A stretch of DNA of 64,000 nucleotides from a virus: the IMG/VR virus record IMGVR_UViG_3300020180_000016, positions 1 to 64,000 of that record; one strand, 5' to 3'. Position numbers and translations under genes: made by a program. Positions within the stretch are counted from its first letter, which is position 1. Each line of letters opens with the position of its first letter. This document shows positions 3,485 through 51,991 of the stretch, piece after piece. The notes beneath the pieces are model-generated. The model was not told where the DNA came from, did not search any database, and saw only the letters and a program-made list of their open reading frames with translations.

Positions 3485-3653
3485 ATTATTTGGATGTCCA
3501 TCGTCAGGCTGATTCATGACTTAGAGCGAACGGTAGAAAACGGTGCAATTTGGGGTAATAAATTGCACGGTATGTCGTAGACTTGTGGTGTAGGGTAAAC
3601 ACACAAAGGTGACCAAAGGTTGCCGACACACATCCAGATTGAGGAGAATGAAG

Positions 3654-4325
3654 ATGAGCACCGTTGAATCTGCTGCGTCGAATAAGTTGCTGCTTCCGCT
3701 CGAGCGGGCCCGTGCCGTCCTGCTGTTCCTCGGATTCCAACTGGCGCCGAAATGGAACGCCGACCAGATGACCAAGAAGATGCCGCTGTGCGTCGACATC
3801 GACTTCTCGGCCGGTCCGAAGAATGAGCAGGTCAAGTTCGACCTGGCTGAGGTGCTCGAGGCCGTCAAGGCCAGTCGCGAGATTCGTGTCTTCGAAGGCG
3901 ATCAGCCGACCGAGGCCGACCTGGCGAAGAAGAGTGGTGACGACAAGGCCGTCAAGGAAGTCGAGCGGGCTCGCAAGGCCAAGGCTCGGCAAGAAGCTGC
4001 CGAAGAGAAGAAGGCCGCTCGCGAGAAGGCCAAGGCCGAGAAGGAACAAGCCAAGGCCAACAAGGCAGCCGGCAAGGGCAAGCCGGCGAAGGACATGGCC
4101 AAGGGGCGTGGATATTACGCCGGCGTGGTCTGCCGCACGATGGGTTACAAGGACGGCATCACGGAGACGATGATCGCCGAGGTGGATCGTCTCTACGGCA
4201 AGGCCAACCCGCAGGTCTCCAAGGGTGCTCTGGGTTGGGCCATCTCTGCCTTGGAAGGCTTCAACACCGGGGTTGTCGAACCTCAGGTGGCTGACGCTGG
4301 CGCCCCCAGCGATCCGTCGGCTTAA
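3654..4325 (+). CDS. Lys/Ala/Glu-rich hypothetical protein, possibly DNA-binding
   Basis: SD GAGGAG 7 nt before ATG 3654; KAKARQEAAEEKKAAREKAKAEKE tract; inverted repeat GTGCAATTT/AAATTGCAC at 3543-3568 upstream. Confidence 0.65.
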   Translation: MSTVESAASNKLLLPLERARAVLLFLGFQLAPKWNADQMTKKMPLCVDIDFSAGPKNEQVKFDLAEVLEAVKASREIRVFEGDQPTEADLAKKSGDDKAVKEVERARKAKARQEAAEEKKAAREKAKAEKEQAKANKAAGKGKPAKDMAKGRGYYAGVVCRTMGYKDGITETMIAEVDRLYGKANPQVSKGALGWAISALEGFNTGVVEPQVADAGAPSDPSA

Positions 4326-4349
4326 TTGCCGACGGTTTGCTCGGTGCTA

Positions 4350-4438
4350 GAGTGGTGTAAACGGTGTCTGCGGTATTGTGCTTGATAGGCTACTAGGCCG
4401 TCGTACAATACCGCAGACGCCGTTCACACACCACACTC
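4350..4438 (+). promoter_or_regulatory. Long RNA hairpin directly upstream of the modification cluster
   Basis: 4350-4381 pairs with 4403-4438; two core deviations are G-U compatible on the + strand. Confidence 0.55.
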
Positions 4439-4448
4439 AGGTACCACC

Positions 4449-5207
4449 ATGCACATCGTGCTCGCACCGCATCTCGATGACGAGATCATTGGGTGTTATT
4501 CCGTTCTGGATAAGGTCGACCTGGTGCTCTACTTCTCGGTAGATTATCGGGCTGACCAAAATCAGGATCAACGGCCGGGCAGGATTTTGTATGTGCCGGC
4601 CGGCGAGTGGTCCCTACCGCAAATCACCACCCACGATACCGTCTACCTCCCCAGTCAATTCGACTACCATCCACTCCACCGTAAGGTGCGGCGGGTGGGT
4701 TTATCATTGCCTGGTCATAAGATGTTCTACTCGGTGGAGATGAACACCCCGTGGTTGGAAGAGGAAGCCGACCCCGAAGGTAAACGGAATTTGTTTGAGA
4801 AGATGTACCCCGGAGAAGTTGCGACGATCAGCAAATCGGACAAGTATTTCCTCTTCAAGTCCATTCAGCCTTTTGATTCTGTGATCTGGGCTTCTGTGCG
4901 ATTTACGAAACCGTTTATCCATCATTGGCCAGATGCACCCGAAGAGGTGAGTTTCTTAGCACATCCGCATCGGCATTTGTTTCATTTCCAAGTCGATGTC
5001 CAGCAGTTTGACGGTGATCGAGAGATCGAGTATCTCCAATTGTCAAGCCGTGTGCAGACGTGGTTTAAGACTCAGATTTGGGGGTCTTCGACGAGCTGCG
5101 AGGGCTTTGCCAGTCGCATAAAATTATGGTTAGAAACCGTCTACGTCGATCGTAAAGTTCGTGTGAGCGTTTACGAGGATGGTGAGAATGGTGTTGTTTT
5201 GGAGTAG
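4449..5207 (+). CDS. PIG-L family de-N-acetylase fused to a QueD-like (T-fold) domain
   Basis: N-terminal LAPHLDDEIIG and HPLH; C-terminal IHHWPDAPEEVSFLAHPHRHLFHF..DREIEY..SCE..VSVYEDGENG. Confidence 0.75.
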   Translation: MHIVLAPHLDDEIIGCYSVLDKVDLVLYFSVDYRADQNQDQRPGRILYVPAGEWSLPQITTHDTVYLPSQFDYHPLHRKVRRVGLSLPGHKMFYSVEMNTPWLEEEADPEGKRNLFEKMYPGEVATISKSDKYFLFKSIQPFDSVIWASVRFTKPFIHHWPDAPEEVSFLAHPHRHLFHFQVDVQQFDGDREIEYLQLSSRVQTWFKTQIWGSSTSCEGFASRIKLWLETVYVDRKVRVSVYEDGENGVVLE

Positions 5208-16060: not shown

Positions 16061-17531
16061 ACGGTCCCAGCGAGTTTCAACCGCCCGGCGACGAGCCGAA
16101 GAGCACACGTCCGGATATTCGACGACGTGTCTGAAGATTCCCGAAGGGGTTAGCTTCTTCGAGGCGAAGCCCGGGATGTACACGGTGGACATCGTGCCGT
16201 ACACCGTGAAACGGGGCAAGAAGGACGCCGGCGGTAATCCGTTCGCTGAGCGAGGTGAGTTGCATTGGGAGCGGACTTATTATCGATATCGGCAAGTCGG
16301 TCCGGCAGGCAAGCCGTACATCGCGACGGGCAAGACGTTTAATAAACCGGATCCGATCCAGGATTACATTTCGCAGGAGGCTCGCAAAGCCGACTCCGAT
16401 GCGGCCGCCTTGAAGAAGTTGAATCCGCAGGAACGGCAGATTTTCCTACTCTCGCATCATGAGGACTTGGCCAAGGGATTGAAAATCTGGGATTGTGCCT
16501 TCAATAATTTCGGCAAGCTCTTGGATCAGCGTATCCAGACCAGCCCGGAATCGTTTGGGTGGGATCGGTTCTACTTCCCCGAGCAAGACGGAATGTCGCT
16601 CCGGTTGACAATCATCGAAGACAGTTTTGCTGGAACCAAGTTCAGCAACGTCAAGGCAATTGACTTCGTTCCCCGGTCTGGGCCGCTGCCCGATTCGATC
16701 GGCAATCACGGATACCAGCTCGACGATTTTTTGATCGAGCTTCCATACGAGAATCTCAAGAAGATCTTCTTTGGGATGGATCTCAACGAGACCGAGCAAG
16801 GATCCGCCGCAAGCGAGACGACGCCTAGCAACCCACTGCCAAATCAGGTTGCCACTCCGCCGGCTGTGGATTCTTGCATCGCTTGCGGCGGTACTGGCCA
16901 GAGCACATCCGGATCTCCCTGCGTGCCGTGTCTCGGCAAAGGTACGAAGCAGCATCCGCAGGGAGTGGTGTCGAACCCACCCACAACCACCGCAGTGACG
17001 ACCCCACCGACGACCACAGGTGCAGCACCGGGTGCTGGTGCCGGGGTGGCTCGCGGTACGTCTGGGTACTACGAAGGTCGCAAGGTCAGTGTCGTCCGTG
17101 TCGTGGACGACCAGTTCCTTACGTTGATGGATGAGAACGACGAACTCATCAAGAACGTCCCCTTTGCGAATTTTTCAACGCAACCGCAGACCACGGCGAC
17201 GGCCGAACCTGCAAAGCCGCCGGTTCTGAAGACTGTGCAGGAGATGGGAATCACCAAGGATTCCATTCTTCTCTATAAGGGGACTCGACGTTGCACGATT
17301 GCCCGGATCAATCCGGATAACGTGACGATGACCTTGATGGATGACAATGACGATCTCATCAAGGAAGTGCCTACGTCGGACGTAGGCGTCATTGAGACGA
17401 AGGCCGCCACGTCTCCGTCCGGCCCATCTCAGAATTCGACACCACCTCAGCCGCCAGCAGCGGAGGAGACCAATAAATTGACTCCTGACGACGGTGACTG
17501 GGACGAAGGTTGGGGGAAAGGGAAGAAATAG
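16044..17531 (+). CDS. Single-stranded DNA-binding protein (gp32-like, putative) with long C-terminal extension
   Basis: Position before RecA; acidic/aromatic tail DDGDWDEGW; CxxCxGxG pair; duplicated LTLMD(E/D)ND(E/D)LIK domain. Confidence 0.65.
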   Translation: MSRDDRRSQRVSTARRRAEEHTSGYSTTCLKIPEGVSFFEAKPGMYTVDIVPYTVKRGKKDAGGNPFAERGELHWERTYYRYRQVGPAGKPYIATGKTFNKPDPIQDYISQEARKADSDAAALKKLNPQERQIFLLSHHEDLAKGLKIWDCAFNNFGKLLDQRIQTSPESFGWDRFYFPEQDGMSLRLTIIEDSFAGTKFSNVKAIDFVPRSGPLPDSIGNHGYQLDDFLIELPYENLKKIFFGMDLNETEQGSAASETTPSNPLPNQVATPPAVDSCIACGGTGQSTSGSPCVPCLGKGTKQHPQGVVSNPPTTTAVTTPPTTTGAAPGAGAGVARGTSGYYEGRKVSVVRVVDDQFLTLMDENDELIKNVPFANFSTQPQTTATAEPAKPPVLKTVQEMGITKDSILLYKGTRRCTIARINPDNVTMTLMDDNDDLIKEVPTSDVGVIETKAATSPSGPSQNSTPPQPPAAEETNKLTPDDGDWDEGWGKGKK

Positions 17532-19815: not shown

Positions 19816-20913
19816 TGTTTTGGATTCAGACACTCGAGGGGTTTCCGTTTGATCTTGAAAATCCTGAAGCTGGTAAGATCAGTCCTGGGGCAATCTCTAC
19901 TGGATTGTCAAGGCGATACTGGCGGCACCGCGGGAACATGCCGCTGATGCAGCCTGACGTCTCACCCGTGGCCATCAATCAGCTCCGGGATGCGATCTCG
20001 GCGTACTTCCGCCAGAACGAGGGGCGTGGCCACCGTTGCACGGTCGACGCCTACTTGAGGGTGAATCGGTATCACTACTTCTTCGCTTACCCGGACGACT
20101 ACGCGGACACGTACCTGGGACATGATGAACAAGGTCAGTTCATCCGTCGCCCCCAGCGTCCGGCGTTCGAGATTATCTTTCTGTTCGACCCTGTAGACGG
20201 AACGCTGGATATCTACGCCCACGGCGGAAAGGTCGTGCAGGAGTCGCTCCAGACGATCTTCTGTCGCACTCTGCTCGGCCAGGAATTGCCTCCGGAGTCT
20301 CCGCTGGGCCATCCGTATGAACTCAACGGCCTCAAGTCTCGCAACTTCCTGACGACCGCCCGGCAGACCGATCCCGAAGACGGCATCGAAGAGATTCAGA
20401 TCCGCAAGCTCAGGCTCTCAGTCCTGGGTGGGGCCAAGCGCCGGATCACCCTCGAGGCCGATCCCGATGGCGGCCCCAGATCGATCTACAACATGCTGGA
20501 TGAATGCCTCAACCGCCACAATCTGCCGGACGCGATGTTCAACATCACGCTGGCCCAGTTCCACTTCCGCTTCGTCCACACCGGGCAGGGCCGCCAGCGG
20601 ACGCTGACATTCGAGGTGTCCCACCCCAACAGCAGCAACCTCAAAAGCTGCCGTCACGAAGATCTACGGATGATCGGAGACAAGTACATGCGCCGCTGGG
20701 AAATCGACCGTGCTTGATATTCCCCCAATTCATCCTGGACCGCAAGCGGTCGAACGCGCCCGTCTTCACTTCAGAAGAGGTTGCTCGGTGGCCCCATGGG
20801 TTGGTGGACCGACTCGTCGCTGATGGGCGGGCTCCGTGGTCGATGTCCTCACGCTGTGCCGATATCTAGGGCATTGCTTGTCGTTCTATTCTGTTCTGGC
20901 GGCGGTTAGCTGA
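19812..20913 (+). pseudogene. YfbR-like HD phosphohydrolase gene, interrupted by foreign DNA and truncated
   Basis: WIQTLEGFPFDLENP..ISTGLSR (to 19913) resumes as LCRYLGHCLSFYSV at 20854, then stops before the HD motif. Confidence 0.75.
19915..20853 (+). other. About 0.94-kb foreign insert: 3' part of one gene fused in frame to the HD N-terminus (stop 20717) plus a 5' fragment of the next gene
   Basis: Shift to C/G-ending codons; GC dinucleotide shared at both junctions; no transposase or terminal repeats. Confidence 0.7.
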
Positions 20914-24519: not shown

Positions 24520-25536
24520 ATGCCGTCGAATGACTCAGTCGCGAATGATTTGCGGTGGAAGAAGTTTCCGTTGCTCAGTGACGGATTTGTGTGCCTAGTC
24601 GATGTGATGGGAGATGATTACTCGGTTGTGCAGGCCGCCCGAGTAAGCTACGGTAAGGATACCAGGTTTAATCAGGTCTGCTCTGGTGGTGGTGAGCCTT
24701 ATTTGGATCAGAGCGAGAAATCGAAGAAAGAGGATCTCAATCTTCTTCGGTACCTGATGCGGCATCGACACACCACTCCGTTCGAGATGGCCGAGGTGAA
24801 GTTGCTCATCCGGGTTCCGATGGATTTGTGGCGGCAATGGATTCGGCACAGGACGGCGAATGTGAATGAGTACAGCACCCGCTATGCGCCGGCGATTGAC
24901 TCGATGGATGTTACACCACCTGATGCCTGGCGGTCTCAGAGCGGTGCAAATAAACAAGGTTCTTCGGGTTTTGTGACTGAGTGGCCGAAGGCATTGAAAC
25001 CTGATGGTGAAGGGTTGATTTCTGCTGGTGACTATCTTTCGACGGAAGAGAGGAATTTCCACGATCAGGCCAGGAGACTTTATGAGAAGAGGTTGGCCTT
25101 AGGCGTCGCCAAGGAGCAGGCCCGGAAAGATCTCCCTCTAAGCAATTATACTGAGGCTTACTGGAAGTGCGATTTGCATAATGTGCTCCATTTCCTCGGG
25201 CTGCGGATGGACAGCCATGCTCAGAAGGAGATCCGAGACTATGCGACGACCGTCGGCGAGCAGATCATCAAGCCGTTGTTCCCGGCGGTCTGGGAAGCCT
25301 TCGTCGACTACCGAATGAAATCCATGCAATTGACACGGCTGGACATCGAGATTATTCAAGAGATTCGATCGCTTGAAGGATTCCTTTTGGTCGGTGAGCA
25401 TGAGGCTGCCGACAAAGAGAAGAGATTTCTTGCAGCCTGCACGAACCTCGGCTTCTGGCCAGAAGACAAAAGCAGAGAGCGAGACGAGTGCCGAGCCAAA
25501 TTGGAACGGCTCAGTCTGCTCCCTACCAAGATATGA
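24520..25536 (+). CDS. thyX: Flavin-dependent thymidylate synthase
   Basis: AARVSY, HTTPFE, RQWIRHR..NEYSTRY, EQARKDLP, LRMDSHAQKEIR. Confidence 0.96.
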   Translation: MPSNDSVANDLRWKKFPLLSDGFVCLVDVMGDDYSVVQAARVSYGKDTRFNQVCSGGGEPYLDQSEKSKKEDLNLLRYLMRHRHTTPFEMAEVKLLIRVPMDLWRQWIRHRTANVNEYSTRYAPAIDSMDVTPPDAWRSQSGANKQGSSGFVTEWPKALKPDGEGLISAGDYLSTEERNFHDQARRLYEKRLALGVAKEQARKDLPLSNYTEAYWKCDLHNVLHFLGLRMDSHAQKEIRDYATTVGEQIIKPLFPAVWEAFVDYRMKSMQLTRLDIEIIQEIRSLEGFLLVGEHEAADKEKRFLAACTNLGFWPEDKSRERDECRAKLERLSLLPTKI

Positions 25537-25539
25537 AAG

Positions 25540-25767
25540 ATGGCGATGCGAGGAAAACCGACTCGGCATGTTCCGGGAACAGAGGGTAAAGTCCTAGCCC
25601 TCATCAAAAGGTATGAGGATGGCTTTGATATGTTTCATCCACAAGATGCGACGTATGACGGTCGAGTGCTGGCTACTGATGACGGTAAGAAGGTGGCCGA
25701 TAATCGCGGTCGACGACCCAAGAAGATGAAACCTTTGCAAGAAGATTCTACCGACGTCGTAGAATAG
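25540..25767 (+). CDS. Hypothetical protein
   Basis: PT..PGTEGKV..L..RYE.G..FHP.DA; operon packing. Confidence 0.55.
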   Translation: MAMRGKPTRHVPGTEGKVLALIKRYEDGFDMFHPQDATYDGRVLATDDGKKVADNRGRRPKKMKPLQEDSTDVVE

Positions 25768-25785
25768 TGTGAAAGGAGATCTTTT

Positions 25786-26037
25786 ATGCCTAGCACACTC
25801 ACGATGCCGGACATGGTGGAAGTACCCGTCACGTCTCCGCAGATGAAGAAGAAGTTCCGATACGACCATTGTTGTCCGTCGTGCGGCGAGTCGATTTCGT
25901 TTCAATCATTTTTGGCACTCTTCGCTGGTGAGCCTGTTCAGAAATTCACGGCGAGGAAGAGATCAAGATGTCCGCTGTGTGGTGATTTTGTTGAGGTCGA
26001 GCTCTGTCTGGAGTTCTCAATCCGAGAGGTGAGGTAG
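25786..26037 (+). CDS. Zinc-ribbon protein
   Basis: CPSC..CPLC; SD AAGGAG. Confidence 0.65.
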   Translation: MPSTLTMPDMVEVPVTSPQMKKKFRYDHCCPSCGESISFQSFLALFAGEPVQKFTARKRSRCPLCGDFVEVELCLEFSIREVR

Positions 26038-26613
26038 ATGAGGAAGATCTTTTGTGTGCCGACTCGATGGGTCGGCGGCTACGTGAATATGGACACGTTG
26101 AATTTTGCACCCGATCGGATTAACTCTGTGAGGCGGCTGCTCGAGCAGGGCGAGATGCGGCCGATGGGTGAGCATAAAGAATTGGAAGACGACGAGAACT
26201 GGAAGCAGATCATCCCGTACATCGTCTTCCGGTGCGGGCCGTTCTTCTTGCAATACAATCGCGGATCAACGGCCGGTGAGCAGCGGTTGAAGGAGTTCAC
26301 TTCGATTGGAATCGGTGGGCATATGGAAAGCCCACATCTGATTACCAATATGCTCCGAGAGGTCGAGGAAGAGGTCTCGATCAGCGGTCTCTGGAGCCCT
26401 ACGTTCCGCTATTGTGGGCTGGTGTATGATCCGACGACACCGGTTGGCCGAGTCCATCTGGGTTTGGTGTTCGTTGTCGAGGCTCCTCATCCGGACAGGT
26501 TTCGATTCGAGGCTCGAAAAGAGACGAACAAGCTGCGATTCAATCTGCTAGGCGAGATTGAGAAATACGAGCAATGGTCGCAGGCGATCATCAACAACCT
26601 CAAGGGTCTCTGA
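26038..26613 (+). CDS. NUDIX/MutT-like phosphoesterase
   Basis: KQIIPY, SIGIGGH, REVEEE, VGRVHLG. Confidence 0.8.
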   Translation: MRKIFCVPTRWVGGYVNMDTLNFAPDRINSVRRLLEQGEMRPMGEHKELEDDENWKQIIPYIVFRCGPFFLQYNRGSTAGEQRLKEFTSIGIGGHMESPHLITNMLREVEEEVSISGLWSPTFRYCGLVYDPTTPVGRVHLGLVFVVEAPHPDRFRFEARKETNKLRFNLLGEIEKYEQWSQAIINNLKGL

Positions 26614-26913
26614 TGATGCAGATTGACCGTGAGGTATATCTGCTTGGTGTCAAAATAGGCGGCTCGGCACGTTGGCGGTATGATAGACGTGTCCGAAATC
26701 GTAATAGGCTGCACAGAACCAAACCCATCAAGACAAGATGGAGCCTAGGATGAAATTCCCTCTTGAGATGTATCCGATTGTTCTGATGCTGCTGCAACCA
26801 GTGGTCACTCGGTACACTCACATTCCGCCGTGGAGCGAACTGTGCCACCCACTCTTAAGACGATTGATGGGCAAGAAGTGGTTCGACGTAAAATTCTTCA
26901 CGGTGAATAGATT

Positions 26914-27783
26914 ATGCCTAGTGGTGACGATCTCCAAGAAAGTCGTAATGGCGGACTTCGTAGGAATCAGGTCAGAGCCCGCCTACGAAAACGGCTTACA
27001 CGAGTCGAGGAATTGATGCTGAGAGGCGTCACGTCTCCTAAGCAAATCGCTCTGGCTTTTGGCGTCTTGCCAAGACGAGCCAGTATCTGGATGAAAAAGA
27101 TTCGTGATTCTTGGCAGACCCGAGACAAAGAACGTACCCAAGAAGATCGACGAACAATCCGTATCAAGCAACTGGAAAATATCGCGATTCTGGCTCTCAG
27201 TGAATTTGCCCAGTCCAAGAAAAATTCAAAAGAGAAGGCAGTAGTGAGTCAGACGTGCCGGCAATGCCACGGCGACAAGATTGTCATGGACAAGAATGAA
27301 ATCTGTCAAACTTGTGAAGGACTGAAAATCGACGAGACATTTCCAGGCCAATACTCGATGTGTATGGACTGTAATGGCACAGGATTCGGAACTAAAAGAT
27401 GTCGAGAATGTAGAGGCACGGGAGAGACAAAGATCAATACGTTAAAGGTGAAGCAGGAGTGCGGTGACCCGGCATATCTCACTATTGCGAAAGCCGCCTT
27501 TCTTGAATGTGCCCGACTTGAAGGCCTGACCTTCGACAGTAGAATAACCCTTGGAAAACAGCTTATTGAAGCGTCTGCTGGTGTAGACGGTGTGATTTCG
27601 CAGAAGATTGAAGAGATATACTTTGATGCACCCGTCGATGTAATCATTCAAGCTATGGCGGCGATGGATGAGTTGAGACGGAAAGGTACGAGAATTGACC
27701 CACCACCAAATACTGACCAGACGGCCAGGGGCGAACCCGGTACTGGGTTGACCATAGAGATTGACCCGACTAAGAATGAATAG
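26914..27783 (+). CDS. Putative terminase small subunit (HTH) with inserted DnaJ-type zinc fingers
   Basis: HTH (SPKQIALAFGV), four CxxCxG motifs, GDPAYL..ARLEGL. Confidence 0.55.
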   Translation: MPSGDDLQESRNGGLRRNQVRARLRKRLTRVEELMLRGVTSPKQIALAFGVLPRRASIWMKKIRDSWQTRDKERTQEDRRTIRIKQLENIAILALSEFAQSKKNSKEKAVVSQTCRQCHGDKIVMDKNEICQTCEGLKIDETFPGQYSMCMDCNGTGFGTKRCRECRGTGETKINTLKVKQECGDPAYLTIAKAAFLECARLEGLTFDSRITLGKQLIEASAGVDGVISQKIEEIYFDAPVDVIIQAMAAMDELRRKGTRIDPPPNTDQTARGEPGTGLTIEIDPTKNE

Positions 27784-27966
27784 GTGGGTTCGTATAGTTT
27801 CACAGCCGTTGTAGTAGGTTTGCCGGCTAAATGCCGGCATTTCCATAGAGATTAATCTGCGAAAACGGTAAGAATGTGGTCGAATAGTACCAAAACACCA
27901 AAAGCGCCCTAGGACCAAATGTGCTTTTGGTGGTGAATTTAGGCTTTTACCAGAATGAGGCCAAGC

Positions 27967-28410
27967 ATGATTAATAAGCCATTTGAATTGCGAGTCGAAG
28001 CGAACGGCAATGGAGACTACGGACTCGCCCTGTTCCGCGTCCCGGCCCGAGGGGAAACCGCCAACGGGGAACACTCGGAATTGCAACTGGTAATCCGCGT
28101 TCATGGGACTCCCATGCGGGCGGTGATGGACCAGGTTCTCGGAACCATCAAGCAGGCCGGTTATCGGTCGTCTGATCTTGCCCGCAACCGAAAGGCTCCG
28201 TTTCAGCTCCCCGAAGAACCAGGCGTTCGACTGGGCCTTTTGCTCATGGCGGTCAAGCCGTTGCGTAAATCGTCGCGGATGACAGACATCTCTGAGCAGG
28301 TTCAGTCGATGGCCGACGAGGAAGCGTACTATTGGTTCAGCAAGATGACAGATCACCGCGTCGGGCAGCGGTCGCAGAAAGCCATGCGGATTCTGCTGGC
28401 CTGCGAATAA
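27967..28410 (+). CDS. Small conserved protein of DUF499/DUF1156-type defence loci (apparently intact)
   Basis: EEPGVRLGLLLMAVKPLRK..MADEEAYYWFSK motif recalled from such loci; DUF1156 fragment nearby. Confidence 0.55.
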   Translation: MINKPFELRVEANGNGDYGLALFRVPARGETANGEHSELQLVIRVHGTPMRAVMDQVLGTIKQAGYRSSDLARNRKAPFQLPEEPGVRLGLLLMAVKPLRKSSRMTDISEQVQSMADEEAYYWFSKMTDHRVGQRSQKAMRILLACE

Positions 28411-28432
28411 GGCCAGCGAAAGGAGAATCCCG

Positions 28433-28507
28433 ATGGCCGAAGGCAGTCGGGTCCGAGACCCCGTTCACAACTTCATCGATCTGACCGAGAAAGAAGGAGG
28501 AACATGA
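28433..28507 (+). pseudogene. HD-domain (YwfO/dNTPase-like) gene reduced to 24 codons by in-frame deletion
   Basis: SD AAGGAG; MAEGSRVRDPVHNFIDLTEKE-GGT*; RDPVH..I is the family N-terminus; ATGA coupling to the next gene retained. Confidence 0.7.
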
Positions 28508-29040
28508 TGGATGCCCGCGATTTCGTGGCGATGACGCTCCTGGCGTCCGGTGGCCATGTGCAAGGCAAAACGAAGCTTCAGAAGCTCGTGTATTTTGTGG
28601 GCGTCCTGACGGACTCTCTCGAGGAGTTGGGCTACCGCCCGCATTTCTACGGGCCGTACTCGGATGACGTGGCGTATGCAATTACGCAACTCAAGGCGAT
28701 TGGTGCGCTCGACCAAGTGGTCTCGGAATGGGGCTACCACTTTACGCTGAACGACCCCGGCAAGGCATACGCCGCCGGCGTTTCGCAGCGTTGTTCAGAC
28801 CTCTGGCGGCGAGTGCAGAAGGCTGTCCAAGCATACAACGAAGCGGGCGACAAGGACTACATGGCATTGTCGATTGCTGCGAAGACCTACTTCCTGTTGG
28901 GCCATAAGAAGGCTCCGGCAACCGATGAGGAACTGACGCAACTGGCATCGCAATTCGGTTGGACCGTCTCGGTCGACCAGGTACGGCAAGCTGCGGAATA
29001 TCTGTCCCGGCTTCACCTGATCGAGCCCTCAACAAACTGA
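28504..29040 (+). CDS. YwgA-like / Panacea(SocA)-related wHTH protein, putative antitoxin
   Basis: GKTKLQKLVYF, YRPHFYGPYSDDV; lies downstream of the HD remnant as in ywfO-ywgA. Confidence 0.7.
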   Translation: MMDARDFVAMTLLASGGHVQGKTKLQKLVYFVGVLTDSLEELGYRPHFYGPYSDDVAYAITQLKAIGALDQVVSEWGYHFTLNDPGKAYAAGVSQRCSDLWRRVQKAVQAYNEAGDKDYMALSIAAKTYFLLGHKKAPATDEELTQLASQFGWTVSVDQVRQAAEYLSRLHLIEPSTN

Positions 29041-29065
29041 TCTCTGTCGAAAGCGATGCCTTCTT

Positions 29066-29488
29066 ATGTCCCGTCCCCGTGTACTCATCGAACAGTGGCT
29101 CCCCATTGACCAGATCGGGGCCGAGTGCATGCGCGAGCGGGGGGCGTCTTCGGCGTTGCCCCCGCTGTATTTTCTGCACGTCTGGTGGGCGCGGCGGCCG
29201 CTCACGGTCAGTCGCGCGGCGATTCTGGCCAGTCTGCTGCCGGCTTATCCGACTGGCGACGACGACAGCGTCCGGGCCTGGCCGCAGAAGTTTCTCAAGC
29301 GGTTTCCGACGTTCGACGCCTACAAGCAGTGGTTTCTGAAGCTGATCGGCATTCAGGGGAACCCGGCCACCAGCCGAAAAATTATCGACTGGGCCAAGAC
29401 CCAGGGGCTCAAGCTGACGCCGGCGTCGCACTGGCGCTCGTGCCGGAGATCAAGGTGGTGCCCATCAGCGGGGCCGCTAAATGGCTGA
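29066..29488 (+). pseudogene. DUF1156 adenine DNA methyltransferase, N-terminal fragment
   Basis: LIEQWLP..RER..LHVWWARRPL..SRAAILASLLP; homology lost at about 29415. Confidence 0.8.
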
Positions 29489-29606
29489 CACCCGAAAAGG
29501 CGATGATTGGACTGAATCTGCGAGGGAAGAGCAACGACCGCTTCTGGTTCACGTTCTTCCACGAGGCGGGACACATTCTCAACGACCGCAAGAAAGAGAC
29601 GTTCAC
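29413..29606 (+). pseudogene. ImmA/IrrE-type metallopeptidase domain fragment (HigA-fused family)
   Basis: AGVALALVPE..SGAAKWL..LNLRGKSNDRFWFTFFHEAGHIL (HExxH). Confidence 0.75.
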
Positions 29607-29619
29607 GGAGTCGACAAAA

Positions 29620-30426
29620 ATGAATGATTTGCAGCAGGACTCTGATGCGAAGAACGATAGTCCGCTGATGATTGCGGCAAAGTTCGGCCGGCTGTTCGTG
29701 GGGGTCAACGTCATGTTGATTCCTGATCGGGACCGTGCCGGTGAAGATGTCGCACAGCATTCCGGGCGCGTCCTGCGCGGGATTGCGAAGTCGATCCGCA
29801 TCGCAGTGCTGCCCGGTGAATTCAAAGAGAGTAACGGCGAGGACGTTCGAGACGTTCTCCGGCGGCCGGACGGGCAGCAGCAGGTCGAGCAAGCCATCGC
29901 TGACGCCCAACCAACCGAGCCGATCGAGAATGACGCGGCTGAGAAGGAGACGGTGCCACACACCCCGGTCGGCGATGTCTCAGAATCCGTAACCGCCAAA
30001 GAGATTGAGAAGCCTGTTCGGCCGGATATCCAGAAGCTCCGGATTGCGGAATTGGAAGGTCGGCGGGATGCCTTGCAGCAGCATCTTAAGAATGCACAGA
30101 ACGCTGTCGACGAGGCGAAGAAGGAAGATGCGGACAGATGCTGGGGTTTGGGCAAACCGCCAACCCCAGCATCTCTTGAGACGGTGCAGCATGGCGGCAG
30201 GCATTACAAAGGTATGGCAATCCAACCGGCCGAGTATTGCCATAAGAACGGATTCAAATTTTGTGAGTCGGAGGCGATCAAATATCTGTCACGGTTTCGT
30301 AGTAAGAAGGGCGAGGAAGACGTCCGCAAGGCGATTCACTTCTGCCAGATGATTCTGGACATGGAGTACAGTGTCCAGTCGAATGTGATCTACCCGGAGA
30401 CTAAATCATCGAAGAGCCCGACTTGA
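29620..30426 (+). CDS. Chimeric ORF: gene-start fragment + Toprim fragment + coiled-coil pieces + phage DUF3310 domain
   Basis: GGAG before ATG 29620; IPDRDRAGE..EDVRD (Toprim-like); HGGRHY..IQP.EY..AIKYLSR..KKGEEDVRKA (DUF3310). Confidence 0.6.
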   Translation: MNDLQQDSDAKNDSPLMIAAKFGRLFVGVNVMLIPDRDRAGEDVAQHSGRVLRGIAKSIRIAVLPGEFKESNGEDVRDVLRRPDGQQQVEQAIADAQPTEPIENDAAEKETVPHTPVGDVSESVTAKEIEKPVRPDIQKLRIAELEGRRDALQQHLKNAQNAVDEAKKEDADRCWGLGKPPTPASLETVQHGGRHYKGMAIQPAEYCHKNGFKFCESEAIKYLSRFRSKKGEEDVRKAIHFCQMILDMEYSVQSNVIYPETKSSKSPT

Positions 30427-30686
30427 AACACCCAGCCGTTAATCTTTCTGGTTTGGATGGTGCCGCGTCTTGGATTCGATTTCGAGCAATAAACGAAGAC
30501 ACGCTCGATGAGATTCTGCCTGCTGAATTCTTCGTTGAAGGTCTAACCTGCGAAGACCAGAAGAACAATATCTGGAAAGTGACGTATCGACATGGCCAAG
30601 AAATTGCCGGCGGTTTTAACTCCAGCAGAGAAACTTGCCAAGGAGAAGTCGACGAGATTTGGAAGCCTAATCCCTCACCATCGTAG
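30423..30686 (+). CDS. Hypothetical protein
   Basis: ORF overlapping the upstream stop. Confidence 0.35.
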   Translation: MKHPAVNLSGLDGAASWIRFRAINEDTLDEILPAEFFVEGLTCEDQKNNIWKVTYRHGQEIAGGFNSSRETCQGEVDEIWKPNPSPS

Positions 30687-30961
30687 AAAGCTCAAGGATG
30701 AGATTTTTATTGGTCATTGTTGCCTTGTCCAGCTCTGGTTGCCTCTTTCTCCCTCACAAGTCCGAATGGAAAGATTGCCGCAATGGCCCAGCTCCCATTA
30801 TGTCGAGTTCTGGAGATAACCGACTACTGGGAGAACCGCATTCGCGTTGATTTCAAATATAGGCATTTGGCGGTGACACCAGCACAGAAAGACTTTCGTC
30901 GTCGTATCTTTCATTTGTGTGTCCTCAAATGTCGGCAAGAACGAGCCTCAAGAGATAGAGC

Positions 30962-31918
30962 ATGAAAACCAAAACCATCAAAGCCGTTATTCTCAAGAAG
31001 ATGAGTGACTGGTGGAAATCCATCGAGGACGAGAAGCTCCGTGAGAGAGTGCAGCAAGGCACCATCGTCACTGGCGGCTGCATCCCGTCCATGTTGCTGC
31101 GTGAGCAGGTCAACGACTATGATGTCTATCTCCGCAGCCAGGATCTTGTCAAGGACTTGGCTCGATACTATGTGAATCGGTTCCAGGTGAAGACGAAGAG
31201 TGGAATTGACTGTGCAATTTTCGTCCGAGAAGAGCCTGACGGCCGGATTAAGATCGTTGTCAAGAGTGCCGGCGTGGCCAGTGAGAAGAGAAGTGAGAAA
31301 CAGTACGAGTATTTCGAGGGGGCTGAGGATTCCGCAGGCGGCGAATACGTCCGTGAGGTGATGCAGGATCCTGGGGCCATCCAAGATCGACATGATGAGA
31401 CTGAGGCTGCTATTCTTGAAGGAGCTGACAAGGGGCCGGCCTATCGACCAGTCTTTCTGTCTACCAACGCAATCACTTTATCGTCCAAGGTTCAAATCGT
31501 GCTCCGGTTCTATGGCGAGCCTGATGAGATCCACAAGAACTACGATTTCGTTCACTGCACGAATTACTGGTCAAGTTGGGACAATCAGTTGGTGTTGAGG
31601 CAGCCAGCCCTGGAATCCATCTTGACGAAAGAGTTGAAATACGTCGGGTCGAAATATCCGCTCTGTTCGCTCTTCCGTATCAGGAAGTTCGTTGGTCGGG
31701 GTTGGACGATCAATGCTGGGCAGATCCTCAAGATGGCGATGCAGGTGCATGACATCAATCTCCACGATCCGATGGTTCTAGAAGATCAGCTTACCGGAGT
31801 CGACGTCGCCTACTTCGCCGATCTGATTCATCGGTTAAAAGAGAAAGACGAGAATGGTGAACCTCGTCGTACAATTGACACGGCGTATCTGGTAGAGATC
31901 ATTGACAGGATGTTTTAA
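30962..31918 (+). CDS. Conserved phage protein, nucleotidyltransferase-like fold
   Basis: TGGCIPS..NDYDVY, NAITLS..QIVLRF, YDFVH, SKYPLCSLFR. Confidence 0.7.
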   Translation: MKTKTIKAVILKKMSDWWKSIEDEKLRERVQQGTIVTGGCIPSMLLREQVNDYDVYLRSQDLVKDLARYYVNRFQVKTKSGIDCAIFVREEPDGRIKIVVKSAGVASEKRSEKQYEYFEGAEDSAGGEYVREVMQDPGAIQDRHDETEAAILEGADKGPAYRPVFLSTNAITLSSKVQIVLRFYGEPDEIHKNYDFVHCTNYWSSWDNQLVLRQPALESILTKELKYVGSKYPLCSLFRIRKFVGRGWTINAGQILKMAMQVHDINLHDPMVLEDQLTGVDVAYFADLIHRLKEKDENGEPRRTIDTAYLVEIIDRMF

Positions 31919-31928
31919 TATAACTCCA

Positions 31929-32315
31929 ATGAGAACTGGATTCTTCCCACCCGACCATAAACCAAAGATCATCGGGATTGTCGGATCTCGTCGCCGAAAT
32001 TCAACGGCTGACGAGATTTTGCTTGAAGAGGCATTCTTCCAGGTCTATCAGCCCGGAGACCGGATTGTATCTGGTGGTTGCTCGCAGGGTGCTGACGCCT
32101 TTGCCGAGGTGCTGGCACGCCGTCACGGTATAACGATCATCATACACTACGCCCGGTGGGCAGACGGTAAGGCATCTGGCTTGGCACGCAATACAAGCAT
32201 AGCTCGGGATGCTGACGTGCTCTTGGCCGTCGTAGCTTCTGATAGAACCGGTGGGACTGAAGACACGATCGACAAGGCTCGACGATTCGGCAAGAAGATC
32301 ATCACCATATTGTGA
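31929..32315 (+). CDS. SLOG/DprA-like (DUF2493/YspA-type) protein
   Basis: IVGSR, IVSGGCSQGAD, ARNTSIA, GGTEDTI. Confidence 0.8.
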   Translation: MRTGFFPPDHKPKIIGIVGSRRRNSTADEILLEEAFFQVYQPGDRIVSGGCSQGADAFAEVLARRHGITIIIHYARWADGKASGLARNTSIARDADVLLAVVASDRTGGTEDTIDKARRFGKKIITIL

Positions 32316-32645
32316 GGCTGAGTGATGCCATGATACCTGAGCGACTCGCGGAAATGGATGAGGTGGACAACTGTAAAGCCCGAGGTGACTGGATTACGGA
32401 AATCGCCATCCTCGAGCTTGTGGCAGAAGTGAAGCGGCTGCAAGATCTGATTAAGAAATTTCAGGATCGACGAGTCGAAATCTAAATGTACCTTTTCACC
32501 GTCGAGTACCTAGTCGCTCAAGAGCGCCGGATGTCGGAAGTTGAGGTGACCGACACCAACGACGAGAAAGAAGCTCGATTGGTGGTGTTGAGGCATTACA
32601 TCTCGCGAAAGATTCGAGTCGTTGCTATTCGTCGAGGAGGGTTTG

Positions 32646-34253
32646 ATGACGGGGCCTAGGAAAGCTACCAGGGTCGATCTTGTCAAAGAAGAAGGTCGGG
32701 TCAGGAAAGCCTACCAGAAGATGAGTGCGACCTCTTTCGAGGTATTTTATCGTGGTTTGACAATCGAGTCTGCCACAGGTCCGCGAGTCTTTGAAACCTG
32801 CTCTGCCGATTTCCAGAAAGAGTTCTTTGAGGACGTGGGGCCATCTTTACTCGCCGTTCAGTTAGGGATTCTACCTCCACGAAGACGGTTCTGGCTCGAG
32901 CGGACGAAGAAGTCCTCTAAGGATGCTGACTTAGCCATTATTATGATGTGGCTGATAGCATTTCCACAGAGGCCGCTCTATCTTCAGGTCGGTGCTGCCA
33001 ATCGTGTGCAGGCGGCTATCGTCAAAGACCGAATGACCCATCTACTTCACTGGAATCCTTGGTTAACTGAACACGTCGAAATTGTTCAGTGGGAGGTCCG
33101 TAGTAAGAAGAAAAATCAAGCCGGATCCCATATGGCGCTTTTGCACATCATGAGCTCGGACATTTCTGGTGCTCATGGTGGTATCCCTGATGTTCTGATC
33201 GTCAACGAATTAAGCCACGTAGATAAATGGGAGTTTGTTGAGAATTTGATGGACAATGCGGACGGCGTGGCTCAGGGAATCGTCATCATAGCCACCAATG
33301 CCGGGTTTGTCGGGACGAAGGCTGAGGTGTGGCGCCTGAATGCAATGAAATCACCGCAGTGGTGCTTTCATATGCTGGCTCGACCAGCTCCGTGGCACAG
33401 CAAAGAAACAGTCCTTGAGGCTGAGCAGAGAAATACATCCAGATCACGGTTCAGACGTCTGTGGCACGGCGAGTGGCAGACCGATAAAGGTGATGCTCTT
33501 AATCAGACTTTGATCGAGCGAGCTTTCACCCTCTCAGGGCCAGCCGGTAAGGCTGATCCGACCTGGGATTATATCATGGGCTTGGATCTCGGCATTACCC
33601 ATGACCATTGTGGGTTGGTGTGCATTGGCGTTAATCAGACACTCCGCAAAATCAGATTAGCCTATATGGAAGGTTTTGCCCCAAACGGGGGCGAGGTGTT
33701 CCTTCCAGATGTGGAAAAGGCTTGTGACCGGATTGCTAAGATCTTTCGGCCGTTATGTCTGATCTATGATCCGCACCAAGCTATTCTTATGGCTCAGCAA
33801 CTCCGAGGGAAAGGAATCCCGACCAGGCAGATGGTATTCAGTAGTCCAGGTAATCTGGGACGAATGGCGTCTAGTCTCGTACAATGTTTTGAGCACAACC
33901 TGATCGAGCTCTACGATGAAGATGATCGATTAAAGAGGGACTTGAATAAGTTCAGCATCGTCGAAAAGCAATATGGTCTCAAGCTCGAGGCTACTCGAGA
34001 TGAATACGGACATGCTGACGTCGGCACAGCCTTAGTGATAACTCTTCCGGCTGCTATTGATCTCCTGGAAGGCTTATGGAATCCAGAGTTTGATGGCGAT
34101 TTGATTGCTGTCGAGACTGAGGACTTGACCAAGGAAGAGATCGCAGAGCTACCCGACCATTTCCGTGATTTGTTCGACATGGAAGATGGTGTGAAGAAAG
34201 AACGGCAGATCGAACAAGGTTGGGACGACAGCCCGTTTAAGGATTTGACATAA
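32646..34253 (+). CDS. terL: Terminase large subunit
   Basis: AANRVQA, deviant Walker B LIVNE, coupling motif ATNAG, RRLWHGEW, RNase H-like GLDLG..D, YDPHQ, HAD. Confidence 0.85.
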   Translation: MTGPRKATRVDLVKEEGRVRKAYQKMSATSFEVFYRGLTIESATGPRVFETCSADFQKEFFEDVGPSLLAVQLGILPPRRRFWLERTKKSSKDADLAIIMMWLIAFPQRPLYLQVGAANRVQAAIVKDRMTHLLHWNPWLTEHVEIVQWEVRSKKKNQAGSHMALLHIMSSDISGAHGGIPDVLIVNELSHVDKWEFVENLMDNADGVAQGIVIIATNAGFVGTKAEVWRLNAMKSPQWCFHMLARPAPWHSKETVLEAEQRNTSRSRFRRLWHGEWQTDKGDALNQTLIERAFTLSGPAGKADPTWDYIMGLDLGITHDHCGLVCIGVNQTLRKIRLAYMEGFAPNGGEVFLPDVEKACDRIAKIFRPLCLIYDPHQAILMAQQLRGKGIPTRQMVFSSPGNLGRMASSLVQCFEHNLIELYDEDDRLKRDLNKFSIVEKQYGLKLEATRDEYGHADVGTALVITLPAAIDLLEGLWNPEFDGDLIAVETEDLTKEEIAELPDHFRDLFDMEDGVKKERQIEQGWDDSPFKDLT

Positions 34254-37950: not shown

Positions 37951-38640
37951 ATGAGTTGGTTCTTAATCGTTGCTGTTCTGCTCAACCCAGCCTACGAGCT
38001 GGTTCCGTCTAATACCCAGAAGCCTTTATTCGAATTGGTAGACGACAAATCTACCATCATCGGATACACCTTAGGCGACGGATGTGTGCCGTGCAAACGA
38101 GCAGCGAGCGACGACACGCAAGGCAACCTCTCAGTTCACATCGAGTGGAAGGCTCCGCCGGATTGGTACATCAAGGATTTTGTTGAGAAGCATCCAGGCG
38201 AGTATGGTTTCCCGGCCTTCCACTGGAAGAACAAGAAAGGGATGTGGGTCGTCAAGTCTGGATATCTGGATGCCAAATCTTTCAATGCGATGTTGAACCA
38301 CGCTGAGATGGAGATGGAGATGGCAGTGGCCGGACCCAAGACAGGTGTCTGCCGATGTCGCGGATCGAACGAGGGGGTTTGCTTCTGCCGTCAACGAGGA
38401 GTGGTTTGTCGATGTAATGCGTCGACGGGCTCCGTCTGGACATTGGACACGAAGAATAAGCCAATTGCCAAGACCGGTCAGTATGCAAACCCCAATACCG
38501 CAGCACCTGCAGGAACCAACAAGAATGCACCAAGGACCACCGACCAGGCACCGGGCAGTAGCGTAGGTGGTCGGTGGGTTTTGCAGCGGCAATGCACCAG
38601 GCGTGGGTGTTTCTACAATCAGGTTTGGGTTCCGGAATAA
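37951..38640 (+). CDS. Secreted thioredoxin-like, Cys-rich protein
   Basis: SD AGGAG; hydrophobic N-terminus; CVPC..FP; CRC/CFC/CRC. Confidence 0.6.
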   Translation: MSWFLIVAVLLNPAYELVPSNTQKPLFELVDDKSTIIGYTLGDGCVPCKRAASDDTQGNLSVHIEWKAPPDWYIKDFVEKHPGEYGFPAFHWKNKKGMWVVKSGYLDAKSFNAMLNHAEMEMEMAVAGPKTGVCRCRGSNEGVCFCRQRGVVCRCNASTGSVWTLDTKNKPIAKTGQYANPNTAAPAGTNKNAPRTTDQAPGSSVGGRWVLQRQCTRRGCFYNQVWVPE

Positions 38641-38643
38641 TCA

Positions 38644-39405
38644 ATGGTCACCAAGTCGAATACGTCGATACCTATCAGTTATCTTGATACTGATGGGACG
38701 CTTGCTGCAAATTCAGATGTGACGGTGGCGACTCAAAAAGCCACGAAGAGCTACGTCGACAGTGTCGCGACGGTGGCGTCTGATACGATCTGGGACGCCA
38801 AGGGCGACATCGCGGCCGGAACTGCGGCGGACACGGCTGCCAAGCTGACCGTGGGGACGAATGGCTATGTGCTCACGGCGGCCAGCGCCGAAACGACCGG
38901 TTTGAAGTGGGCAGATCCGGGCACGGTGTCCAGCCCGACGGCAAAGGTACACATCGCGGCGGGGACCGCGACCGCCAACACGGCCCCTTTGAAGCTGACG
39001 AGCGGAACAAACCTGACTACTCCAGAGGCCGGGGCGGTCGAGTTCGACGGCAGCACGATATTCTTCACCAACTCGACGCCGACGCGCATCCCGCTCACGG
39101 CTCCTCTGGTCGCGACGACCTACGGGGGCACGACGACATTTGATCTGGCCGTCGGCCGCGTCCACACCGTCACCTTGACCGGCAATCCGACGCTGGCGCT
39201 GAGCAACGTGACGAACCGGCCCTTCTCCATCTGTCTCAAGCAGGACGGGACCGGCTCGCGGACGGTGACCTGGTTCAGCACGATCGCCTGGGCGGGCGGC
39301 GTCGCCCCCACACTCACCACCACCGCCAACAAGTCCGACCTGTTCGGATTCTTACCGATCGGCGGCGGCAACTACCTCGGCCTCGTGTTGGGGCAGAACG
39401 CATAA
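38644..39405 (+). CDS. Fibre/adhesin-like virion protein
   Basis: DGTLAANSD..ATQKA.KSYVD, AKGDI..LTVGTNGYVLTA..GLKW, C-terminal TLTGN..QDGTGSRTVTW..APTLTT domain. Confidence 0.7.
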   Translation: MVTKSNTSIPISYLDTDGTLAANSDVTVATQKATKSYVDSVATVASDTIWDAKGDIAAGTAADTAAKLTVGTNGYVLTAASAETTGLKWADPGTVSSPTAKVHIAAGTATANTAPLKLTSGTNLTTPEAGAVEFDGSTIFFTNSTPTRIPLTAPLVATTYGGTTTFDLAVGRVHTVTLTGNPTLALSNVTNRPFSICLKQDGTGSRTVTWFSTIAWAGGVAPTLTTTANKSDLFGFLPIGGGNYLGLVLGQNA

Positions 39406-40082
39406 TGGCCACTGAAACAAAAATTGCAGGGGCGGGCAGTAGCGTAAACCGTGGCACCGACACTGCATGGAGTAGCCCAGGGTTGGTCACCGCTTCTGAT
39501 TCATACGATGCGATGTGTACAACCACGGCAACCGGAGATAATACGCAACATCTACGTGCGTCAAGCTTCGGGTTCGGCCTACCGAGCGGGTCGCAGATTA
39601 CAGGTATTACCGTCGTGTATCGCCGCAAGGCGCAGTATGCGTCTTCCGCCGTCGAGGTGGAAGTGAAAATCGTAGACGGCAGTACGCAACTTGGCAGCAA
39701 CAAAGCCAGTGGGACAACCTGGGGTCAGTCCTACGAGTTGCGCACAGTAGGCGGGTCTGCGGATACCTGGGGGATTACCGGTGGCAATCTGACAACACTG
39801 TCGGACAACGCCAATTCGACAATTGGCGTTGAAATTCAAGCAGAATCCAACCTCTTCGCGCCGTGCGATTTCAATATCGACTACGTGGAAATGACATTGG
39901 AATACACTGCCGGCGCCGCCGGCACGTACAATGGCACTACGATCGCCAAGGGGGCCAGTGCCTTCTGGCTATTACTGTGCGATGCGTCGCGGGTGGCGAG
40001 TGACAAACTCTGGACGCCGGAGCGGCCCTTGTGGACGCCCCGGCCGGCATATTCTCCCGAGAAACTAGCCAAGGCTGATTAG
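39405..40082 (+). CDS. Beta-rich virion/fibre-associated protein
   Basis: FGFGLPSGSQITGITV..GGSADTWG..IDYVEM. Confidence 0.6.
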   Translation: MATETKIAGAGSSVNRGTDTAWSSPGLVTASDSYDAMCTTTATGDNTQHLRASSFGFGLPSGSQITGITVVYRRKAQYASSAVEVEVKIVDGSTQLGSNKASGTTWGQSYELRTVGGSADTWGITGGNLTTLSDNANSTIGVEIQAESNLFAPCDFNIDYVEMTLEYTAGAAGTYNGTTIAKGASAFWLLLCDASRVASDKLWTPERPLWTPRPAYSPEKLAKAD

Positions 40083-51700: not shown

Positions 51701-51991
51701 ATGTTCCTGTCCTACCAACAAGCAGACTGCACCTTGCCGGCCGTGCAAACGGCTTCGGCTTTCGACATCCCCAAGAATGCGTCTGGGGTGATGTTGCAGG
51801 CTCAAGGCGACGGGGACGTCAACTATACGATGGACGGAACTCAGCCTGGTGCATCGAGCGGGATGATTTTGCAGGCTGGATTGGCCCCCGAAGAGTTTCT
51901 TATCGAAGATTTTCTTCGAATTCGGTTTGTCAAGAGCGATGATGTGACGAAACTGAACGCTCATTTCTTTGGTGGCCGCGACATCAACTAG
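51701..51991 (+). CDS. Small beta-sandwich virion-type protein
   Basis: VMLQAQ..VNYTMDGTQP..SGMIL. Confidence 0.6.
   Translation: MFLSYQQADCTLPAVQTASAFDIPKNASGVMLQAQGDGDVNYTMDGTQPGASSGMILQAGLAPEEFLIEDFLRIRFVKSDDVTKLNAHFFGGRDIN

Follow-up and report, generated by a model that had tools for sequence, protein, structure and literature searches.

Capture and pruning of a planctomycete defence locus by an uncultivated phage, and a possible role of the remaining small genes in counter-defence

What, if anything, does a phage gain from a piece of a bacterial defence locus from which the enzymes have been removed? This question is raised by a block of 1,980 bp (27959–29938) in the IMG/VR record IMGVR_UViG_3300020180_000016, which is an uncultivated phage of planctomycete bacteria. 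The record is linear and 81,757 bp long, with a CheckV completeness of 87%; the window analysed here is its positions 1 to 64,000. The block and all features described below lie on the plus strand, unless stated otherwise. In an original prediction, made from the sequence alone, the phage was thought to have taken up a host defence locus and to have deleted its enzymes while retaining the small partner genes. Both parts of this claim could be substantiated: natural Planctomycetota loci were found with the order DUF499–DUF7680–cassette–DUF1156, and every catalytic part is gone from the phage copy, with the deletions in the HD and YwgA-like genes being in frame. The DNA has been captured and pruned, and as to its use we tentatively propose below that the remaining small partners act against the host system.

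The block is a strain-specific accessory element of host-derived DNA, as delimited by the joints in sibling contigs, by read depth and by base composition. Its GC content is 0.59, compared to 0.50–0.51 in the flanks, with a rise to 0.57–0.64 between about 27900 and 30150. The foreign-looking run noticed earlier is therefore real, and it extends further than had been recognized, to 29938, including slices of an M78 peptidase gene and a Toprim-like gene. Logan contigs of four public runs (X1–X4) were compared over positions 25500–32500. In X1, the probable source run (microbial mat), a single contig of 6,852 bp with a depth of 41.5 is unbroken from 27517 past 32500 and crosses both junctions, while the contig of the left flank has a depth of 40.2; no alternative joint was seen in this run, and the insert-bearing phage is the only form in the sample (41x). 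In X2, a microbial-mat run from another study, a contig of 1,157 bp consists of 27220–27958, 62 other letters, and then 29939–30294. In the freshwater run X3, position 27819 is joined to 30042, and an X4 contig ends at 27955, i.e. at the left junction. An IMG/VR contig (L022) with 97–100% protein identity over six upstream genes ends about 39 nt past the 289-residue gene that precedes the block. The block is a presence/absence polymorphism in near-identical phages, and a recent gain, as its GC content is unameliorated and sibling phages of other samples lack it. No paralogue of any of its pieces was found elsewhere within the window.

Judged by its homologies, the block is host (Planctomycetota) DNA from a DUF499-centred, BREX-related (BR, or Hma) defence locus. 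Natural loci were drawn from genomes, metagenomes and 11 of 401 sampled Planctomycetia genomes. Their gene order is DUF499/HmaC (1,020–1,067 amino acids, aa), DUF7680, a gap with a variable cassette, and DUF1156/HmaB. The end of DUF499 adjoins or overlaps the start of DUF7680, and DUF1156 follows DUF7680 in every natural locus with enough downstream sequence, at a distance of about 80 bp to 3.3 kb. The contents of this gap were surveyed in loci L023, L025, L026, L028, L029, L031 and L049–L059. Two loci have an empty gap of about 80 bp, while in the remainder it contains a DarT-DarG pair (L023, L028, L031), GmrSD (L026, with neighbours matching PADLOC HmaC at 1.1e-117 and HmaB at 2.5e-90), or, in other loci, a PIN pair, HipA-like plus HIRAN, metallophosphatase-TPR, AAA_21 plus a partner, or other genes. 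This shows that the gap between DUF7680 and DUF1156 is a hot spot for the swapping of defence cassettes.

By the same comparison, the main piece in the phage is identified as running from the ribosome-binding site (RBS) of DUF7680 through codon 119 of DUF1156, with a cassette of an HD-dNTPase and a YwgA-like gene in the variable slot. No piece of the DUF499 (HmaC) gene, and hence no DUF499 ATPase, could be found in the block. Relatives of DUF7680 and of the YwgA-like gene occur on identically sized contigs in eight cases (sizes 11,538; 12,422; 7,629; 35,067; 10,590; 13,689; 190,515; 14,571), which suggests that the two genes are neighbours in nature. These coincidences of contig size likewise suggest that one natural locus has the order DUF7680–HD–YwgA–DUF1156; the closest candidates for the donor are on Logan/NCBI contigs of 21,974, 14,571, 11,538 and 55,319 bp.

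The first gene of the block encodes DUF7680 (27967–28410; 147 aa), and is the small gene that the original prediction had described as intact. It retains part of its native RBS (GAGG) and belongs to PF24728 (E 3.2e-37; 128 bits versus a cut-off of 24), covering profile positions 1–140 of 141, with all 36 residues that are invariant in an alignment of 41 members kept. An in-frame ATG at 27955 would lengthen the protein by four residues, and homology to natural loci starts at GAGGCC (27957–27962), 5–10 nt ahead of the ATG. The family is strongly conserved: mean column identity in the alignment is 76%, and the relatives, of which there are hundreds, are nearly all exactly 147 aa long and 65–95% identical. 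The named ones are from Isosphaerales, Planctomycetes and Acidobacteriota, with identities up to 95% in metagenomes. Scans of genomes and metagenome contigs with DUF7680 yielded relatives at 50–76% identity only, those at 72–76% being from Pirellulales and Isosphaerales. Low-depth contigs of the mat runs X2 and X4 match part of the gene (window positions 28308–28541) and diverge after 28370; these are probably natural bacterial DUF7680 loci that coexist with the insert-less phage.

The HD-dNTPase gene that follows is reduced to a stub of 24 codons (28433–28507), as had been proposed. Residues 1–21 of the stub are 81% identical (17/21) to the N-terminus of a 511-aa HD protein encoded by locus L061 in a Pirellulales-order genome (G959). 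The latter protein starts with MAEGTRVRDPIHNFISLTEDE, and the phage stub starts with MAEGSRVRDPVHNFIDLTEKE and then passes directly, at a junction near 28489|28490, to the last few codons of the gene. Within this end the AAGGAGG RBS is still present, as is the ATGA overlap with the YwgA-like gene. An in-frame internal deletion of about 1.4–1.5 kb has removed all invariant catalytic residues; the stub ends before the invariant His and Asp residues (H56, H88 and D89 of L061) and has no Pfam match. The full-length L061 protein has PF01966 and HD_assoc_2 domains and matches PADLOC dGTPase at 1.8e-13. Its stop codon and the start of a YwgA-like gene of 189 aa share the letters ATGA, as in the phage, and the contig ends 127 bp upstream of the HD gene. 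The YwgA-like protein of L061 is about 50–52% identical to the phage copy, and is the sole match in 401 Pirellulales-order genomes, while a YwgA search of 401 Planctomycetota genomes gave weak matches only. More distant natural HD and YwgA pairs, likewise with an ATGA overlap, could be identified in two further loci (L033, L034).

The YwgA-like protein of the phage (28504–29040; 178 aa) is 96% identical to a natural protein of 187 aa, P0122. The original prediction of a near-intact YwgA/Panacea-like gene holds for its first part, with the qualification that 30 nt are deleted in frame behind codon Y78 (near 28737|28738), which removes the residues DRSGFEVRRY relative to P0122. The protein belongs to no Pfam family; its close relatives have 186–190 residues, and many are named 'YwgA' by JGI. 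The Panacea part could not be upheld, as neither the phage protein nor 10 relatives match Pfam DUF4065/Panacea at E values up to 10. The family does have an invariant Y-G-P-x-S motif (G50, P51), with Y at position x in at least 90% of members, which resembles the GPV motif of Panacea without being identical to it. The clearest similarity is to the C-terminal domain of DarG: the phage protein matches positions 177–324 of 329 in the PADLOC DarG profile (E 2.6e-7), and the structural model of P0122 (pLDDT 91.7) matches chain 7yk3_B with Foldseek (E 2e-4, TM 0.63) and with VIA-align (Z 14.5 over 163 residues, rmsd 3.2; next chain 8.0). A BFVD fold search with the model gave only generic winged-helix viral proteins. 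Sequence profile and model agree that the family is predicted to have the fold of the toxin-binding C-terminal domain of DarG, and with this fold an antitoxin-like role would be reasonable.

The DUF1156 methylase gene (29066–29488; PF06634 E 1.6e-17, PADLOC HmaB 8.3e-11) has been cut close to the point given in the original prediction (about 115 codons). It comprises codons 1–119, up to 29422, followed by 21 out-of-frame codons. Over 29066–29422 it is 91.6% identical to L028 in protein and 84% in DNA; homology to natural methylases ends at 29422|29423, and the frameshifted tail reaches a stop at 29488. Natural DUF1156 proteins have 859–1,092 residues, and a full HmaB with its catalytic domain is absent from the phage.

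The remainder of the block consists of slices of two other genes. At 29422–29604 lies an internal slice of a HigA/ImmA-like gene with HTH_3 and Peptidase_M78 domains, 84% identical to residues 224–284 of the 368-aa protein P0509; HEAGH is kept, whereas the helix-turn-helix (HTH) and the remainder of the peptidase domain are gone, and the 61 residues left score 20.3 bits against a cut-off of 22. A linker of 66 nt (29605–29670) with no aligned relative separates it from a slice of a Toprim-like gene (29671–29937), which covers the second half of the Toprim domain with DxD kept. Over 29671–29934 this slice is 88% identical to residues 210–297 of the 939-aa protein P0402, which itself has a weak Toprim_2 match; the slice in the window matches PADLOC RTasDnaG-like at 2.3e-6, and its resemblance to Toprim proteins stops where the block does, at the right junction. 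A 936-aa Toprim relative (P0403) and the YwgA-like P0122 are both from Logan contigs of 21,974 bp, and the whole block may therefore come from one island. A further X1 contig (6,868 bp, depth 11.7) has matches of 27 and 21 nt at 29426–29452 and 29883–29903, on opposite strands, of which one adjoins the DUF1156|M78 junction and the other falls inside the Toprim slice. When each was searched for, the window was found to contain no BR/Hma system, no HD enzyme, no M78 peptidase and no detectable Panacea domain.

The operon with the block is headed by a promoter-like motif, TCGTATAGT (27790–27798), to which the original prediction had drawn attention. This motif has five exact copies in the window, versus 0.14 expected, and none of 100 shuffles reached five. 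The copies are at 541, 15370, 27790 and 49512 on the plus strand and at 51822 on the minus strand; all four plus-strand copies are intergenic and located 20–200 nt ahead of open reading frame (ORF) starts. From this distribution the motif is probably a phage-specific promoter or regulatory element. A sigma-70 promoter scan did not pick up the motif at 27790, and a terminator scan flagged nothing in the leader, including a GC-rich hairpin that can be read at 27821–27839 (7-bp stem TGCCGGC / GCCGGCA, 5-nt loop). This hairpin is a second boundary of variation in the sibling phages, as the X3 joint begins at 27819 and L022 ends nearby.

Behind the block lies a native phage gene (29953–30426) with a DUF3310 domain at its end (PHROG 5839 at 9e-17, with many phage relatives), which is covered by contigs of X2, X3 and X4; no other IMG/VR contig with the native DUF3310 stretch was found. 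As read from the sequence, the gene probably has a GTG start at 29953 and an AAGGAG RBS at 29944–29949, which would place the block in the leader of a phage operon and outside any gene. A longer ORF (29125–30426) was considered as a selected in-frame fusion and was dropped, since the gene behind the block probably starts on its own, with a separate RBS, and the shared frame may be chance. Upstream, the 289-aa gene (26914–27783) matches only a Q-like antiterminator PHROG (2.2e-7) and, below the Pfam cut-off, a DnaJ-type CXXCXGXG zinc finger. The earlier placement of the block between TerS and TerL therefore stands for TerL, which is supported (32622–34253), and is unsupported for TerS. If the 289-aa protein is Q-like, the block occupies the position of a moron in lambdoid phages, behind a late promoter.

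Elsewhere in the window, all long ORFs with family matches are on the plus strand and include a ThyX-like thymidylate synthase. A 318-aa protein (30962–31918) belongs to phrog_4400 (6e-67) and has relatives at 40–67% identity in 20 IMG/VR contigs; no neighbour gene is common to this phage and those contigs, indicating that this gene moves on its own. A TerL-based search revealed no sibling of the whole phage, and a DNA comparison with the phage collection gave no informative match. Other GC-rich islands (at least 0.57, with a window mean of 0.52) are found at 3601–4500, 16701–17300, 19901–20900, 38601–39600 and 53501–55000, and these may be other host-derived insertions.

Our leading proposal, albeit a tentative one, is that host DNA was captured and trimmed and that the small orphan partners now act against the host system, with expression, binding and benefit to the phage as its conjectural parts. 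The lineage of this phage recently captured DNA of a Planctomycetota defence island, and deletions then trimmed it until all catalytic parts were lost, while DUF7680 and the YwgA-like protein, both non-enzymatic, retained their own translation signals. Transcription of the two genes would start from the promoter-like element at 27790, and their products would work as orphan partners. The YwgA-like protein may bind the HD effector of the host and keep it inactive, as the C-terminal domain of DarG does with DarT, and DUF7680, perhaps with the 119-residue methylase stub, may titrate or mis-assemble the ATPase-methylase complex of the host. The pattern of pruning is in line with a function: neither of the two internal deletions (HD, YwgA) shifts the frame, and the RBSs have survived together with the ATGA overlap. 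As expected for an orphan antitoxin-type gene, the YwgA-like ORF is preserved beside an HD stub on a contig that encodes TerL.

Two unrelated viruses also favour a function. In a 54-kb phage contig (IMGVR_UViG_3300029594_000216; L065:5265-6489), an HD gene lacks the catalytic N-terminal 168 residues and starts at DYLLRDS; it is followed by a YwgA-like gene of 162 aa, and both are located just past a CHAP/amidase/lysozyme endolysin. In a viral contig of high GC content (IMGVR_UViG_3300031471_000118; L066:5803-6417), an orphan DUF7680 (PF24728, 1.5e-23) is found near a DnaB-like helicase, with no DUF499 or DUF1156 within 6 kb of it. A more far-reaching version of the proposal, which we consider unlikely, is that the block is a counter-defence locus at its birth, in which part of the very island that restricts the phage was copied, its enzymes were pruned, and three decoys are now in use. 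The DarG-C-terminal-domain-like protein would then silence the HD effector, and DUF7680 and the N-terminal methylase stub would poison the DUF499-DUF1156 (BR/Hma) assembly.

A serious possibility is that the block is passenger debris, i.e. unselected host DNA that entered through illegitimate recombination (perhaps in a single long stretch of a defence island or mobile element), is eroding by deletions and is useless to the phage, its intact ORFs surviving through their small size. Several observations speak for it or against a counter-defence role. Small genes outlast random deletions more easily than large ones, and of the six gene pieces four are fragments that clearly cannot function; the block also contains dead pieces of the M78 and Toprim genes and a methylase tail in the wrong frame, all of them like products of unselected recombination. 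The ten residues lost from the YwgA-like protein include G81, F82, E83 and R86, each conserved across at least 90% of 45 relatives, and in the model of P0122 the ten form the tip of the wing hairpin of the N-terminal winged helix; with a Y-D repeat on each side, the deletion could have arisen by slippage. The phage DUF7680 has two unusual substitutions at conserved sites, and its AlphaFold2 model is poor (pLDDT 52, too low for a fold search); the protein may fold only with a partner. The block was found in one sample alone; siblings in at least two other samples lack it, a third sibling contig breaks off at the left junction, and close relatives of DUF7680 or of the YwgA-like gene are found in no other IMG/VR contig. 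Its unameliorated GC content leaves little time for selection, the several GC-rich islands imply that this phage may often take up host DNA, and the equal sizes of the P0403 and P0122 contigs hint at a single donor island. Two other groups of viral contigs (L062; L063/L064) have the full HD and YwgA pair, so that viral carriage need not mean anti-defence, and to our knowledge HD and YwgA have never been demonstrated to be a toxin-antitoxin or defence pair. Debris accounts less well for other features. A piece taken at random from a host genome of 6–10 Mb would seldom come from a defence locus. The reading frame and the translation signals survived both internal deletions, and no more than 10 nt separate the left junction from the DUF7680 start. 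In addition, the insert-bearing phage is the sole form in its sample at 41x, and unrelated viruses have an HD gene without its catalytic domain next to YwgA, or an orphan DUF7680.

The proteins could also serve the phage in a way that is unconnected with the donor system, for instance as winged-helix DNA-binding regulators of phage or host genes or as a superinfection-exclusion module. In the YwgA-like model the N-terminal half forms a winged helix, and regulators of the PadR/MarR type are secondary structural matches (Z 6–8); moreover, a recurring promoter-like motif precedes the block, which is placed in the leader of a phage operon. This explanation is nevertheless quite improbable, since over its whole length the model specifically matches the DarG C-terminal domain, a binder of protein and not of DNA (Z 14.5 versus 8.0), the tip of the wing, a conserved part, has been lost, operator-like repeats were not noticed, and with every enzyme gone nothing points to an exclusion effector. 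Finally, the original prediction had itself raised the possibility of a chimera in which phage and bacterial sequences were joined by the assembler. The contig is metagenome-assembled, its composition changes sharply at the junctions, and the sibling contig L022 breaks near the left side. A second assembler, however, gives the same junctions at phage depth, in the Logan contig of the source run described above; phage sequence is found on both sides of the block, and internal deletions relative to natural genes are unlike the product of joining intact genomes. We regard a chimera as scarcely credible.

The origins of phage counter-defence genes are mostly unknown (PMC11825919). In the present case one can see how the donor locus is built, where the junctions and the deletions lie, and a sibling phage without the insert, which makes a route of capture and pruning directly testable. 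If the three-decoy version holds, the block would be the first natural inhibitor set for BR/Hma systems, and would directly show capture and pruning to be a source of anti-defence genes. If it is debris, it still records frequent uptake of host DNA by the phage. The finding suggests that HD and YwgA pairs work like toxin-antitoxin modules, and for work on the little-studied DUF499-centred BREX-related/Hma systems we nominate two proteins as entry points, DUF7680 and the partner of HD hydrolases that resembles the C-terminal domain of DarG.

Viral cas genes reportedly act as anti-CRISPRs, according to the title of a preprint (bioRxiv 10.1101/2023.06.24.545427). The likeness, by that title, is that virus-borne defence components are turned on defence; the system is a different one, and the evidence presented here is genomic only. 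Panacea (DUF4065) is an antitoxin domain with a GPV signature motif (PMC8832971), and the YwgA-like family resembles it in being a small partner encoded beside varied toxins; a conserved G-P-[VY] motif is reminiscent of that signature, and none of 11 members matches DUF4065. With the DUF499-centred BREX-related/Hma systems (PMC12839542) the donor locus has in common the DUF499 ATPase, the DUF1156 N6-methylase and embedded auxiliary effectors, whereas the phage has only the first 119 residues of the methylase and no ATPase. A DUF7680 between ATPase and methylase does not appear under that name in the paper on these systems (0 occurrences).

The C-terminal domain of DarG occludes DarT through direct binding (PMC11481870). 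The YwgA-like family resembles DarTG of M. tuberculosis (PDB 7yk3) in the whole-length fold of this domain, and a DarT-DarG pair fills the same slot in sister loci. However, sequence identity to M. tuberculosis DarG is only 15–17%, a macrodomain is absent, an HD-domain protein is the partner in nature, and the phage copy lacks the wing tip. Orphan antitoxin-type counter-defences against DarTG are already known, namely AdfN in T4-like phages (PMC11825919), AdfM in chimalliviruses (PMC13309987) and AdfB in ICP1 (PMC11481870), and the block shares with these an antitoxin-related or antitoxin-mimicking phage gene in the absence of the toxin. AdfN and AdfM are homologues of an enzymatic domain (NADAR and macro, respectively), while AdfB is a small unrelated binder. 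In contrast, the protein retained in the phage block resembles the non-enzymatic, toxin-binding domain of DarG, and its presumed target would be an HD hydrolase rather than DarT. The block further differs from the Adf genes in that a stub of the toxin side, flanking host genes and the scars of capture are still visible, and in that a core small subunit of the donor system, DUF7680, is included.

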